DNA of 64,000 nt, taken from contig JBAXAI010000012.1 in the NCBI GenBank assembly GCA_037142615.1, forward strand, positions 26,415 through 90,414, read 5' to 3'. The position numbers and the translations under genes are program-made. This stretch comes from Spirochaetales bacterium (GTDB lineage Bacteria; Spirochaetota; Spirochaetia; JABEVK01). The notes beneath the pieces were generated by a model, which was not told the DNA's origin, ran no database searches, and saw only the letters and a list, made by a program, of their open reading frames with translations. Shown piece after piece: positions 49,820-63,735 of this stretch (positions are counted from its first letter, which is position 1; the number at the start of each line of letters is the position of its first letter).

Positions 49820-51658
49820 ATGAAAGCTTACGCTACCAACGACTCGCTGCGCAACATCGCCATCATCGCCCACGTTGACCACGGCAAGACCACGCTCGTC
49901 GATGCCTTGTTCAAGCAGTCCGGCACCTTCCGTGAGAACCAGGACGTCGCCGAACGCGTGATGGACCGTGGTGACCTTGAAAAAGAGCGCGGCATCACCA
50001 TCAGCGCCAAAAACTGTTCCATCACCTGGAAGGGCACGAAGATCAACATCATCGACACCCCCGGCCACGCCGACTTTGGTGGCGAGGTGGAACGCGCGCT
50101 GAGCATGGTCAACGGCGTCATTTTGCTGGTCGACGCCAGCGAAGGCCCCCTTCCCCAAACCCGCTTTGTGCTCAAAAAGGCCCTCGAAAAAGGCCACAAA
50201 GTCATCGTGGTGATCAACAAGATCGACCGCCAGGACGCCCGCCCCCAGGAAGTGCTCAACGAGGTGTACGACCTGTTCATCGACCTCGACGCCCACGAAG
50301 ACCAGCTCGACTTCCCCGTGTACTACGCCATCGGCCGCCAGGGCATCGCGCAGAAAACGCTCACCGAAGCGGGCACCAACCTGCACCCGCTGTTCGACGC
50401 CATCGTCGAAAGCCTGCCCGCCCCCCACTACGACCCCGCCGCCCCTTTCCAGATGATGGTGAGCGACCTCGACTACAGCGACTACCTGGGCCGCCTGTGC
50501 GTGGGCCGCGTGGCCAACGGCTCGGTAAAAACCGGCGAACCGCTGGTCCTGTTAGGCGAAGACGGCAAACCGACCAACCTGAAAGTCACCAAGCTGCAAA
50601 CGTATTCCGGCATCGGCTTTGCCGAAACCACCGAGATCCACCCCGGCGACATCTGTATTCTCAGTGGCATCGACAACGTCAAAATCGGTGACACGATTTG
50701 CCACAAAGAACGCCCAGAAGCCCTGCCCCGCCTGACCGTCGACGAACCCACCGTGGCGATGAACTTTTACCGCAACAACGGCCCCTACTCCGGCCTCGAA
50801 GGCAAGTACGTGCAGCCCGGCAAGATTCACGAGCGCCTGGTGAAAGAAAGCCTGCGCAACGTGAGCATCCGCGTCGAGCAGTCCGGCGACAAGGAAAACT
50901 ACACCGTCAAGGGCCGTGGCGAGTTCCAAATGGCCATCATCATCGAAACCATGCGCCGCGAAGGCTACGAGTTCTGCGTCGGCCGTCCCCGCGTGATCAT
51001 GAAAGACATCGACGGCAAAAAGCACGAGCCCATCGAGCACCTGTTCATCGACTGCGAAGAAAGCTACACCGGCATCGTCACCGAAAAGCTGAGCATGCGC
51101 AAATGCCGCATGACCAACATGGTGAACCACGGTAGCGGCCGTGTGCGCCTCGAGTTCAGCGCCCCCAGCCGCTCGCTCATCGGCTACCGAGACGAGTTCC
51201 TCACCGACACCAAGGGCACGGGCCTGATGAACAGCTACCTGGCCGGCTACGAGCCCTACCGTGGCGAAATCCCGAGCCGTAACAACGGCTCTTTGGTGTG
51301 CGACCGCCAGGGCGAGGCCGTGGCCTACGGCATTTTCCACCTCGAACCTCGCGGCCGCATCTTCGTCGTGCCCGGCGACAAGTGCTACGAAGGCATGATC
51401 GTCGGCGAGCACAACCGCGATCTGGACCTCGACATCAACGTCTGCAAAGAGAAGAAGCTCAGCAACATGCGCTCCGCCGGCAAAGACGACAACATTTTGC
51501 TCACGCCCGTGAAGCCCATGACGCTAGAGGCCAGCCTGAACTTTTTGCGCGACGACGAGTGGCTGGAAGTGACCCCGAAGAATTTGCGGTTGCGGAAGCA
51601 ATACCTGGGGATTGCGGATCGGAAGCAACACAGTAAGAAACTCAACGACGGGGTGTGA
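49820..51658 (+). CDS. typA: translational GTPase TypA/BipA
   Basis: G1 AHVDHGKTT, G3 DTPGH, G4 NKID. EF-G-like domains. 612 aa. Intact. Confidence 0.9.
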   Translation: MKAYATNDSLRNIAIIAHVDHGKTTLVDALFKQSGTFRENQDVAERVMDRGDLEKERGITISAKNCSITWKGTKINIIDTPGHADFGGEVERALSMVNGVILLVDASEGPLPQTRFVLKKALEKGHKVIVVINKIDRQDARPQEVLNEVYDLFIDLDAHEDQLDFPVYYAIGRQGIAQKTLTEAGTNLHPLFDAIVESLPAPHYDPAAPFQMMVSDLDYSDYLGRLCVGRVANGSVKTGEPLVLLGEDGKPTNLKVTKLQTYSGIGFAETTEIHPGDICILSGIDNVKIGDTICHKERPEALPRLTVDEPTVAMNFYRNNGPYSGLEGKYVQPGKIHERLVKESLRNVSIRVEQSGDKENYTVKGRGEFQMAIIIETMRREGYEFCVGRPRVIMKDIDGKKHEPIEHLFIDCEESYTGIVTEKLSMRKCRMTNMVNHGSGRVRLEFSAPSRSLIGYRDEFLTDTKGTGLMNSYLAGYEPYRGEIPSRNNGSLVCDRQGEAVAYGIFHLEPRGRIFVVPGDKCYEGMIVGEHNRDLDLDINVCKEKKLSNMRSAGKDDNILLTPVKPMTLEASLNFLRDDEWLEVTPKNLRLRKQYLGIADRKQHSKKLNDGV

Positions 51659-51695
51659 TGGAGGGGGGCGTCCCCCCCCTGCGCTCCATAAAAAA

Positions 51696-51720
51696 GGCGG
51701 CCCTCGGGCCGCCTTTTGTT
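51696..51720 (+). terminator. rho-independent terminator of typA (GGCGGCCC-TCG-GGGCCGCC + TTTTGTT), preceded by a G7/C8 hairpin
   Basis: Seen directly. Flanks GCGCTCCATAAAAA and TTTGTTATTGCGCTACCCC are repeated at 63604-63660. Confidence 0.65.
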
Positions 51721-51763
51721 ATTGCGCTACCCCCGTGCGGGGACACCCCTCAAGGCCCGATGG

Positions 51764-51794
51764 TTCGCAAGACTCCGTTGCCCATGCTATAAAG
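51764..51794 (+). promoter_or_regulatory. candidate sigma70-type promoter for the island operon (TTCGCA-18bp-TATAAA)
   Basis: Hexamers at 51764-69 and 51788-93, 20 bp upstream of gene start at 51814. Confidence 0.3.
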
Positions 51795-51813
51795 ATGTTC
51801 GGAGTCCGAACAC

Positions 51814-62665: not shown

Positions 62666-62900
62666 GGGCTCCGGGCAGCGCCCGGCGAGGGGGTAGCGGA
62701 AGACCCCGCAGGCGCAGCCGAGGAGGCTGAAGCGAGGGGGAGACTTCCCCCCTTGGTCCAGTCGACCTACCAAGCTCCTCGGCCGAGATCGGGGCTTTGG
62801 CTAAGCCGAGGGAGAAGCGAGGACCGCAGGCGTACTGGAAGTACGTCGAGGACCGGAGCCGCCCTAGGCGACGCCAAAGACCCGAGATCGGCCGAGGAGG

Positions 62901-63537
62901 GCACGAGCCCATCGAGCACCGCCACATCGACTGCGAAGAAAGCTACACCGGCATCGTCACCGAAAAGCTGAGCATGCGCAAATGCCGCATGACCAACATG
63001 GTCAACCACGGCAGCGGTCGCGTGCGCCTGGAGTTTTCGGCCCCCAGCCGCTCGCTCATCGGTTACCGCGACGAGTTCCTCACCGATACCAAAGGCACCG
63101 GCCTGATGAACAGCTACCTCGCCGGCTACGAACCCTACCGCGGCGAAATCCCGAGCCGTAACAACGGCTCTTTGGTGTGCGACCGCCAGGGCGAAGCCGT
63201 GGCCTACGGCATTTTCCACCTCGAACCCCGCGGCCGCATTTTCGTGGTGCCCGGCGACAAGGTGTACGAAGGCATGATCGTCGGCGAACACAACCGCGAC
63301 CTCGACCTCGACATCAACGTGTGCAAGGAAAAGAAACTCAGCAACATGCGCTCCGCCGGCAAAGACGACAACATTTTGCTCACGCCCGTGAAGCCCATGA
63401 CGCTAGAGGCCAGCCTGAACTTTTTGCGCGACGACGAGTGGCTGGAAGTGACCCCGAAGAATTTGCGGTTGCGGAAGCAATACCTGGGGATTGCGGATCG
63501 GAAGCAACACAGTAAGAAACTCAACGACGGGGTGTAG
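62901..63537 (+). pseudogene. typA: diverged duplicate of the 3' terminal ~640 bp of typA (encodes C-terminal about 211 aa of TypA, no 5' part)
   Basis: Aligns with 51022-51658 at roughly 90% nucleotide identity with mostly synonymous differences. Encoded peptide nearly identical (…DKVYEG… vs …DKCYEG…). Confidence 0.8.
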
Positions 63538-63617
63538 CTAGGACCGGAGAGTTTTTGGCGAAGCCAGAAACTCTGGGGCTAAGGTACCGTAGGTGCCGTG
63601 CCCGCGCTCCATAAAAA

Positions 63618-63643
63618 CAGCCCCGTCAACGGGGCTGTTTGTT
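63618..63643 (+). terminator. rho-independent terminator after the typA fragment (CAGCCCCG-TCAA-CGGGGCTG + TTTGTT)
   Basis: Same conserved flanks as the typA terminator at 51696-51720 but a completely different stem sequence. Confidence 0.6.
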
Positions 63644-63735
63644 ATTGCGCTACCCCGGCGCAGACTTCGCTAGCGCCTGCCGGGCGTCGCCCGGAGCCCG
63701 GATCGCGTGCTATAACACTCCTGTGAGACCGATTC

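Follow-up and report, generated by a model that had tools for sequence, protein, structure and literature searches.

The 11-kb segment that follows typA in a 64,000-nucleotide (nt) stretch of DNA from an uncultured Spirochaetales bacterium (hereafter the window) is one cassette of an anti-phage defence hotspot of about 22 kb, situated immediately 3' of typA. Judged from its protein sequences, the operon that fills the segment is a Type-2 BREX-related (BR) system, an already catalogued type whose layout is not novel, and nested in it is a predicted second system, the two-gene HEC-02. Between this cassette and the next, the 3' end of typA recurs as a truncated and diverged duplicate. The identity of the systems and the existence of the hotspot, taken together, we consider very probable; an insertion route that needs no integrase has, in our estimate, about an even chance; and the complete explanation, in which system identity, hotspot and insertion route are combined, we regard as fairly probable.

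The locus adds one more case of a catalogued system, Type-2 BR, with the validated passenger HEC-02, and is a useful natural example and not a discovery. The typA duplication is of interest as a clear recombination scar, made of a displaced core-gene 3' end with almost only synonymous divergence and a likely conversion patch, at a hotspot without an integrase. The turnover of hotspots that lack mobility genes was called 'enigmatic' in PMC10250203, and the typA locus supplies a concrete and testable model for it. In addition, the locus appears to hold a naturally arisen null allele of the methylase in a BREX-like system whose nuclease-helicase is intact, which bears on whether the methylase is needed for restriction, as in BREX, or whether its loss leads to self-toxicity. 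At least in one spirochaete lineage, typA can also be added to the genes that anchor defence hotspots.

Sequence source and gene calling

The window belongs to a contig of 125,058 bp (ENA ERZ4224321 NODE_119; contig position = window position + 26,520) from a metagenome assembly with a coverage of about 10x. The encoded TypA is identical to NCBI MEI8094495.1, entered as 'MAG: Spirochaetales bacterium', and in a scan of reference genomes the C-terminus of TypA showed only 86% amino acid identity to the nearest species. Defence genes were called using PADLOC models (PADLOC-DB v2.0.0), NCBIfam equivalogs and Pfam. Relatives for comparison of the typA position were drawn from the TypA 90% cluster and had 84-90% nt identity. 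The typA terminators and the TGCTATAA box were called by direct reading and alignment. The features are listed in Table 1.

Table 1. Coordinates of the features of the typA locus (window positions)
Feature	Position	Strand	Basis
typA/bipA translational GTPase, intact, 612 amino acids; left boundary of the hotspot	49820..51658	+	Pfam GTP_EFTU, EFG_C, BipA_C, full length
Repeat copy 1 ('leader'): typA 3' 636 nt, G6/C6 small hairpin, terminator-like hairpin, TTTGTTATTGCGCTACCCC, TGCTATAA	51022..51792	+	Alignments
DUF499 AAA+ ATPase, 1030 amino acids, BrxC-like core	51814..54906	+	Walker A GGGKT, Walker B LLDE; Pfam DUF499
DUF3780 protein, standalone, 195 amino acids, Type-2 BR hallmark	54903..55490	+	Pfam PF12635, 221 bits
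HEC-02 ABC-type ATPase, 348 amino acids	55487..56533	+	Walker A GENSTGKS, Walker B/D-loop LLFWDEPE; Pfam AAA_21, AAA_15
HEC-02 partner, NERD-like PD-(D/E)xK nuclease, 179 amino acids	56533..57072	+	D50...E64-A-K66 motif read from translation
DUF1156 N6-adenine methylase, 944 codons, in-frame TAG at 59040-59042 (codon 654)	57081..59915	+	Motif I FSGSG (166), motif IV DPPY (555)
HKD/PLD-SNF2 helicase, 916 amino acids, presumed nuclease effector	59915..62665	+	HxK...GSxN at 122-144, DEVGLGKT, DEAH
Imperfect hairpin, 125 nt, abutting the first base of typA'	62775..62899	+	Inverted repeats; two copies of structured repeat
typA', displaced allele: promoterless, truncated copy of the 3'-terminal 211 codons of typA	62901..63537	+	Pfam EFG_C, BipA_C
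Repeat copy 2, post-stop: 44-nt extra hairpin, terminator hairpin 63618-63637, TTTGTTATTGCGCTACCCC 63638-63656, TGCTATAA 63708-63715	63538..63715	+	
hsdR 5' end; opens the second defence cassette (complete protein on the contig, 843 amino acids)	63736..64000	+	

Identity of the operon

The first-pass annotation, made from the letters of the window alone, had described seven co-oriented genes with overlapping stops and starts. The seven open reading frames (ORFs) between 51814 and 62665, with overlaps of 1-4 nt, stand as described, and they amount to six genes, the methylase being made up of two ORFs. The module suggested in that annotation, with DUF499, DUF1156, DUF3780 and SNF2-PLD components and a likeness to a 'helicase-methylase-ATPase' system, was borne out, as the four core proteins matched dedicated PADLOC and NCBIfam models.

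The DUF499 ATPase matched PDLC02192 at 1370 bits over model positions 1-1021/1022 and NF042962 at 1329 bits (cutoff 1200), and reached only 177 bits with HmaC. For the DUF3780 protein, the scores were 233 bits with PDLC02191 and 217.6 bits with NF042961 (cutoff 200). The helicase matched PDLC02193 over its full length at 1372 bits and NF042964 at 1186.6 bits (cutoff 1100), while DrmD (135 bits) and HmaA (111 bits) matched it only in part. The methylase was covered by PDLC02189 (944 positions) at positions 2-651 and 654-944 across its two ORFs (1059 + 363 bits), and by NF042963 at 929.5 + 305.1 bits, each fragment lying below the cutoff of 1000. Among the four 'anti-phage-associated' families NF042961-64, three were thus passed outright and the methylase family only with the fragments summed. 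Of the Pfam profiles proposed in the first-pass annotation, DUF499, DUF3780, AAA_21, PLDc_2 and SNF2-rel_dom were matched, and the PADLOC matches of the four core proteins were full length. In the helicase, Pfam placed PLDc_2 at residues 21-177, followed by SNF2-rel_dom and Helicase_C. The catalytic motifs, read from the translations, were intact in all proteins of the island.

The published Type-2 BR layout consists of a DUF499 ATPase, a standalone DUF3780 protein, an N6-methylase and a helicase with an N-terminal HKD domain, and has been reported in 1120 taxa (NAR 2026, PMC12839542). The operon in the window has this layout, with the DUF3780 gene between the DUF499 gene and the remainder, and an identical gene order was found in about 40 complete metagenomic Type-2 BR loci. 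We assign the operon to Type-2 BR because of the full-length PADLOC and NCBIfam matches together with this agreement in layout. What it shares with the catalogued type (PMC12839542; NF042961-NF042964; PDLC02189-02193) comprises the four core families, their order and strand, the full-length model matches, the standalone DUF3780, the HKD/PLD domain at the helicase N-terminus, the DUF1156 N-terminus and DPPY motif of the methylase, and the presence of extra defence genes embedded in the operon. The helicase, as predicted from its domains, has the N-terminal HKD/PLD and neither a TUDOR domain nor a C-terminal restriction endonuclease. The operon differs in the nonsense codon that splits its methylase ORF, in that Pfam at E<=0.01 detected no Fn3-like domains in its DUF499 protein, whereas precomputed annotations show them in most close homologs, and in that its nearest homologs are only 67-68% identical.

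Other known systems were considered and set aside. Hma, which is Type-1 BR in the classification of NAR 2026 (PMC12839542), likewise combines an ATPase, a methylase and a helicase in a three-part logic, the DUF499 and DUF1156 components being homologous, and often hosts embedded defence genes; its helicase-nuclease HmaA gives protection against T4. Hma helicases, however, have a C-terminal PD-(D/E)xK nuclease, whereas the helicase in the window has an N-terminal PLD domain, and Hma lacks the DUF3780 protein found here. Hma sensu stricto was rejected on scores of 177 (HmaC), 73 (HmaB) and 111 bits (HmaA, helicase C-lobe), against 1059-1372 for the Type-2 models. For BREX types 1-6, no PglZ match was obtained in the seven ORFs, the sole PglX match was 43 bits, and BrxH matched in part at <=105 bits. 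DISARM was represented only by partial DrmD/DrmA helicase-lobe matches (<=135 bits) on the PLD-helicase, with no DUF1998 protein, and Dpd by partial helicase-lobe matches only. The earlier statement that the layout is not a canonical restriction-modification (R-M), BREX or DISARM system agrees with these results, since the Hma, DISARM, BREX and Dpd models matched parts only, at <=177 bits.

By analogy with its families, the system would work by self-marking. The methylase would mark host DNA, as in R-M or BREX; a complex of the DUF499 ATPase, as scaffold or sensor, and the DUF3780 protein, proposed as a reader module, would scan DNA; and the HKD/PLD-helicase would act as the effector that degrades unmarked DNA. 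Against this picture it counts that no experiments on any Type-2 BR system were found in the searchable literature, the defence mechanism being drawn from homology to BREX and Hma.

By eye, the first-pass annotation had judged the island lower in GC and A/T-richer at third codon positions, and the computed values agree: GC was 0.570 in the island and 0.633 upstream, and GC at third positions (GC3) was 0.635-0.675 compared with 0.76-0.84 in the flanking genes. The methylase is the exception among the island genes, with a host-like GC3 of 0.775-0.779. Such a value amid low-GC3 operon neighbours suggests a recombinational exchange of the methylase in an operon that had already formed, and hints at a mosaic origin of the island.

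The embedded HEC-02 pair

The ABC-like ATPase and the PD-(D/E)XK protein had been placed correctly by family in the first-pass annotation, which counted them with the rest of the gene set; their matches assign them to HEC-02 and not to the BR machine. The ATPase matched PADLOC HEC-02 models over their full length at 356, 287 and 221 bits (356 bits: positions 1-342/344). Its partner matched PDLC04145 at 99 bits (residues 1-162, model positions 1-153/170), and a Pfam search of the partner gave no match; the assignment of the partner family to NERD is taken from bioRxiv 10.1101/2024.01.29.577857. The pair is nested between the DUF3780 and methylase genes with spacings of 1-8 nt.

HEC-02 (Hma-embedded candidate 02) was described as an ABC ATPase and a NERD-like nuclease from Hma loci which reduce plaquing, both genes being required (bioRxiv 10.1101/2024.01.29.577857). 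The pair in the window resembles it in being adjacent and co-oriented, in its Walker A and (D/E)xK motifs and in being embedded in a locus of Hma type. It differs in its host, which is Type-2 BR and not Hma proper, and its activity is predicted. ABC-ATPase-centred backup modules paired with PD-(D/E)xK nucleases have been reported inside BR loci, and HEC-02 was seen at the matching operon position in three related loci (L099, L100 and L103). On its gene content, the pair is taken to be a separate two-gene system with a putative ABC ATPase sensor and a putative nuclease.

The A and B labels of HEC-02 in PADLOC-DB v2.0.0 were found to be inconsistent between PDLC04145/04146 and PDLC04213/04214/04221-04228. 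The best PADLOC match of the ATPase is a model labelled HEC-02B and that of the small nuclease a model labelled HEC-02A, and other models are labelled oppositely.

The interrupted methylase gene

The methylase is read as two ORFs in the same frame, 57081-59042 and 59046-59915, separated by TAG-TAC. The shared frame and the contiguous model coverage around the TAG indicate one gene, not two. The position of the stop is occupied by Trp in 36/36 full-length (>=900 amino acids) homologs, within the motif ...AAGLQVTAAW.x.TET..., and the lesion reflects either a transition from TGG to TAG or an error in the consensus. Owing to the TAG, the set of Type-2 BR core genes in the window is not intact. A nonsense codon at an invariant Trp means that the BR system is probably switched off or crippled here, with HEC-02 intact. 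It speaks against this reading that the TAG may stem from an error in the consensus or belong to a minority allele.

The interruption could alternatively be harmless. An N-terminal product of 653 amino acids and a C-terminal product of 289 amino acids, started at a GTG, might assemble, or readthrough of the TAG might occur; in either case the BR system would be fully active. It fits this possibility that FSGSG and DPPY (motifs I and IV) both lie upstream of the stop and hence in the N-terminal product, that a GTG suitable as a restart is found at 59046, 4 nt past the TAG, and that every other gene of the operon is intact. Methylase interruptions also recur. In L099 and L100, which are the closest homologous loci (DUF499 68% identical), identical to each other and from two assemblies, the seven-ORF layout including HEC-02 is matched and the methylase carries an independent frameshift upstream of DPPY. 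Among 80 metagenomic Type-2 BR loci, the methylase was split in 5/40 complete genes, DUF499 in 1/36 and the helicase in effectively 0/30 (1/31 before one artefact was discarded), so that interruptions tend to be commoner in the methylase than in the other large genes (5/40 vs 2/67, Fisher p ~0.1).

This enrichment is not significant, however, and the idea of a split enzyme was drawn from the same data; recurrent methylase inactivation was likewise rejected as a demonstrated pattern and is a trend only. Moreover, none of the 36 aligned full-length homologs is interrupted at the TAG codon, the Trp that it replaces is invariant and lies in a conserved motif, and interruptions elsewhere fall at differing positions, as upstream of DPPY in L099, which is like random damage. 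A functional split methylase is conceivable but quite unlikely.

In two further, unrelated Type-2 BR loci (L162 7191-8964 and L166 from 12054), methylase homology is broken at a matching query position, residue ~435-439. The break in L162 contains an insertion of about 1.8 kb, which could be a mobile element or an intron, or the break could be a natural split site.

The defence hotspot 3' of typA

The island is not a self-contained element, but one cassette within a multi-system hotspot bounded by typA and by housekeeping genes. The hsdR-like gene noted after the duplicate is confirmed as hsdR and opens a second cassette. The order after typA' is HsdR, HEC-09 NYN (full length), an HsdM-S fusion, a PDC-S05-like gene, HigB with PD-Lambda-2_B (368 bits), and DUF2442, that is, a type I R-M system with an embedded HEC-09 NYN followed by PD-Lambda-2, extending to about window-equivalent 73.7 kb. 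To the right of the hotspot lie housekeeping genes (beta-helix, SIS, ROK, MFS and dehydrogenases).

The same position holds differing cargo, or none, in relatives. It is empty after typA in L084 and L085 (TypA 92% identical in amino acids) and is occupied by a C5 cytosine methylase in L090. In nine contigs of a TypA lineage with 97.5% identity, the assembly ends 9-1260 bp past typA. L092, a conspecific contig from another sample, has 99.78% identity to the window contig over 11.5 kb of PD-Lambda-2 and right flank, and only 90.5% over typA'-hsdR-NYN-hsdM. Directly upstream of its hsdR, L092 carries its own decayed typA remnant, frameshifted by an indel, and the contig ends inside this typA-like segment. 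Genes of the island were not found beside typA in 80 other taxa.

Core defence hotspots often lack mobility genes, and transfer by flanking homology has been proposed for them, as for cDHS1/2 of P. aeruginosa (PMC10250203) and hotspot #37 of E. coli (PMC10121019). The typA locus resembles these in having a fixed position by a conserved gene and varied defence cargo, with replacement, an empty state and other cargo all represented. It differs in the duplication, between cassettes, of 636 nt of the flanking core gene together with the terminator and a promoter-like box. In the hotspot literature searched, typA was absent as an anchor, no search having been aimed at typA itself.

Three further observations concern the surroundings of the hotspot. 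The HsdM-S fusions of the two conspecific contigs, at L092 3894-6389 and L002 14208-16676, are only 72% identical, with specificity-domain DNA that cannot be aligned amid flanks of 90-99.8% identity, which indicates swapping of target-recognition domains between strains. A third, inverted copy (75-76% identity) of the typA terminator-like element of about 60 nt was found at L002 18492-18547 (window-equivalent 71288-71352, minus strand), between a DUF2335-like ORF and HigB within the second cassette. The upstream side of typA is also non-syntenic: in L086 (8502-9944; 97%-TypA lineage) the order is NUDIX, cNMP-gated ion channel and typA, and in the window about 11 kb (38746-49763) are found instead, comprising a tandem array, two two-component systems, a 775-amino acid ORF without a Pfam match, and an MCP.

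The duplicated 3' end of typA

The first-pass annotation had reported an intact typA with its terminator, and a recurrence of the last 640 bp or so, together with the terminator flanks, at 62901-63660. All TypA/BipA domains were found in the complete gene, and a hairpin resembling an intrinsic terminator lies at 51696-51713, followed by a T tract (self-complementarity at 51688-51722). Alignment of 51022-51735 with 62901-63660 gave 93-94% identity, and typA' alone is 94.5% identical to 51022-51656. The extent of the repeat needed a small correction: 62901-63660 is real, but the repeat is slightly longer, with weaker similarity past 51735 and 63660 up to a shared TGCTATAA box at 51785-51792 and 63708-63715. 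The 19-nt element TTTGTTATTGCGCTACCCC occurs twice in the window, where 0.02 occurrences are expected.

The divergence is unevenly spread. Homology begins abruptly, exactly at 51022/62901, and the first 20 nt, GCACGAGCCCATCGAGCACC, are identical in both copies. Two of the three non-synonymous changes fall together in a cluster of 4 nt, 20 nt inside the repeat, where the change TGTT>GCCA in typA' is derived relative to all relatives. Altogether, 37 of the 636 coding nt differ, giving 27 synonymous and 3 non-synonymous codons and a different stop codon (TGA vs TAG). The 199 nt preceding the stop show zero differences, and with them the longest identical tract of the repeat, 200 nt, falls at the 3' end of its coding part. 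By our own arithmetic, a run of this length at about 8% divergence has a chance of about 6e-8, and is thus not due to chance. After the stop the copies diverge anew, with a 44-nt indel and terminator stems that differ in sequence between conserved flanks.

As synonymous differences so outnumber non-synonymous ones, both copies seem to have evolved as working typA alleles. We infer that they are two alleles from related lineages under purifying selection and that the fragment did not arise by local duplication and decay. The head of typA' is 92-95% identical to the L092 remnant and its 200-nt tail only 83%, which makes the tail a likely conversion patch from the intact typA.

The TGCTATAA box stands about 20 nt ahead of the ATG of the DUF499 gene in copy 1 and of the hsdR ATG in copy 2, and in alignments with relatives the hsdR of an independent contig is also preceded by the terminator and TGCTATAA architecture. 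The box is like an extended -10 element, and its conservation in three sequences suggests a promoter role; against such a role, a simple scan for consensus promoters and terminators listed neither the typA terminators nor the TGCTATAA box.

The duplication might also be an assembly artefact, in which a contig joining two strains, one with typA and the BR island and one with typA and hsdR, created a repeat and a typA' junction present in no single genome. The metagenomic origin and the coverage of the assembly would allow this, related-strain assemblies break right past typA, the L092 contig ends inside a typA-like segment, and a second assembly with the junction was not found. At the joint between the hairpin and typA position 51022, however, homology starts abruptly, and the two sides have no sequence in common by which a de Bruijn assembler could be misled. 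The copies also differ at 37 positions and were hence not collapsed. L092, from an independent sample, has a decayed typA remnant directly upstream of hsdR, and its place corresponds to that of typA', which argues that a typA' pseudogene before hsdR is real in the population. A chimera is accordingly very improbable.

Route of insertion

The duplicate had been interpreted in the first-pass annotation as the footprint of site-specific integration into the 3' end of typA, with the remark that no integrase was visible. The remark held, none being called from about 12 kb upstream to about 20 kb downstream. The footprint was not demonstrated: the repeat profile, the lack of a recombinase and the mosaicism of L092 fit homologous recombination or gene conversion at least as well. 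Between window position 39.8 kb and window-equivalent 82.9 kb, no integrase, recombinase or transposase was found among the called genes or Pfam families, and hence no element-encoded recombinase beside an attachment (att) site.

In the homology-driven route that we favour, a segment made up of the typA-3' leader, the BR operon and the hairpin would have come from a related lineage (about 8% synonymous divergence) and recombined with the resident typA through their homology. This could have occurred by a Campbell-type single crossover of a circular intermediate containing leader, BR operon and hairpin (route A), or by homology-anchored recombination with one illegitimate joint at the hairpin|typA-51022 border (route B). 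Either would restore an intact typA and leave the truncated typA' displaced ahead of the older type I R-M cassette, and the 200-nt identical tract would be the crossover or a gene-conversion patch. Such an insertion is favoured by the succession of diverged, identical and diverged parts in the repeat, by the shared leader before both operons, by the lack of a recombinase and by the mosaic allele of L092.

Several points weigh against it. The hairpin|typA' junction was seen in one contig only, at the coverage of about 10x given above. Neither the reference scan nor the TypA 90% cluster yielded a genome less than 3% diverged that could show an empty site or tell which typA 3' copy is the resident one. 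Sliding-window identity and site patterns revealed no clear recombination breakpoint inside typA. Searches of other assemblies for exact matches to the helicase and the truncated methylase gave no record, a result that is uninformative in view of the presence of both among the gene calls of the source contig. Finally, the 20 identical nt at the start of the repeat (GCACGAGCCCATCGAGCACC) could be the att core of a site-specific event.

Precedents for such an event exist. The elements e14 and phage 21 insert into the 3' end of icd, where the element supplies a diverged replacement 3' end and the displaced fragment becomes a pseudogene. Applied to typA, a tyrosine or serine recombinase would have acted at a core of 51022-51041 / 62901-62920, the island would have brought a replacement typA 3' end (51042-51658), the native end would have been displaced to the right, and the integrase would have been deleted later or supplied in trans. 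In both cases an essential-type protein gene is entered in its 3' part and a displaced fragment is left behind; the restored target gene with the fragment at the far end is indeed the icd/e14 geometry. Synonymous divergence would be expected if the island had evolved in a related host, and the cargo is lower in GC. Specific support comes only from the 20 identical nt with which the repeat begins.

The e14 and phage 21 elements, in contrast, have their own integrase next to the att site, and none was called around the typA island. The identity pattern of the typA repeat also seems to fit poorly with a short core followed by divergence, as its 200-nt identical tract is found distally and not at the core. 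The 4-nt cluster just past the supposed core is derived in the copy that should be native, and all relatives match the copy that should be island-borne. Furthermore, the repeat runs on through the terminator and the promoter-like box, which also stand ahead of the neighbouring cassette in another strain, and the allele-level mosaicism of L092 is typical of homologous exchange. Classical site-specific integration of the icd type is, on balance, somewhat unlikely.

Homology-driven insertion might be only one step of a more general process, in which typA-leader cassettes loop out by recombination between leaders, re-insert into a related typA, restoring the gene, and stack in tandem, all without an integrase. 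We put this forward as speculation and consider it unlikely. Within such a scheme, the 125-nt hairpin could mark the end of a cassette as prone to recombination, and the loss of the methylase, both in the window and in L099/L100, could serve as an off-switch.

Junction hairpin and tandem array

The 240 nt between 62666 and 62905, which include the hairpin at the typA' junction, have a fold energy of -74.8 kcal/mol (z = -6.4). A covariance model found no further hairpin copies in 279 kb of related sequence, nor were any found in the other loci or viral contigs examined. A search of the hairpin, the terminators and a 52-nt tandem array against Rfam gave sub-threshold chance matches only (Atu_C8 at 26 bits vs a gathering threshold of 50, and eukaryotic miRNA models). 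Within the window, a second copy was found at 41072-41196, after the tandem array, and 12/36 pairs are compensatory between the two copies. Inner motifs common to both are TTTGGCTAAGyCGAGGG ... GCGAGnACCGCAG ... GACGCCAAA, and a weak partial match was seen at 40403-40473 on the minus strand.

The array itself occupies 40416-41106 (TRF 40492-41042), where a 52-nt unit, GTCAAGGCGCAGCCGAAGACACCA...GCCCGCCAAAGG...GACGCAG, is repeated about 10.6 times with 86% matches. It is non-coding, its period not being a multiple of 3 and stops being present in all frames, and variation within each unit is limited to two short blocks.

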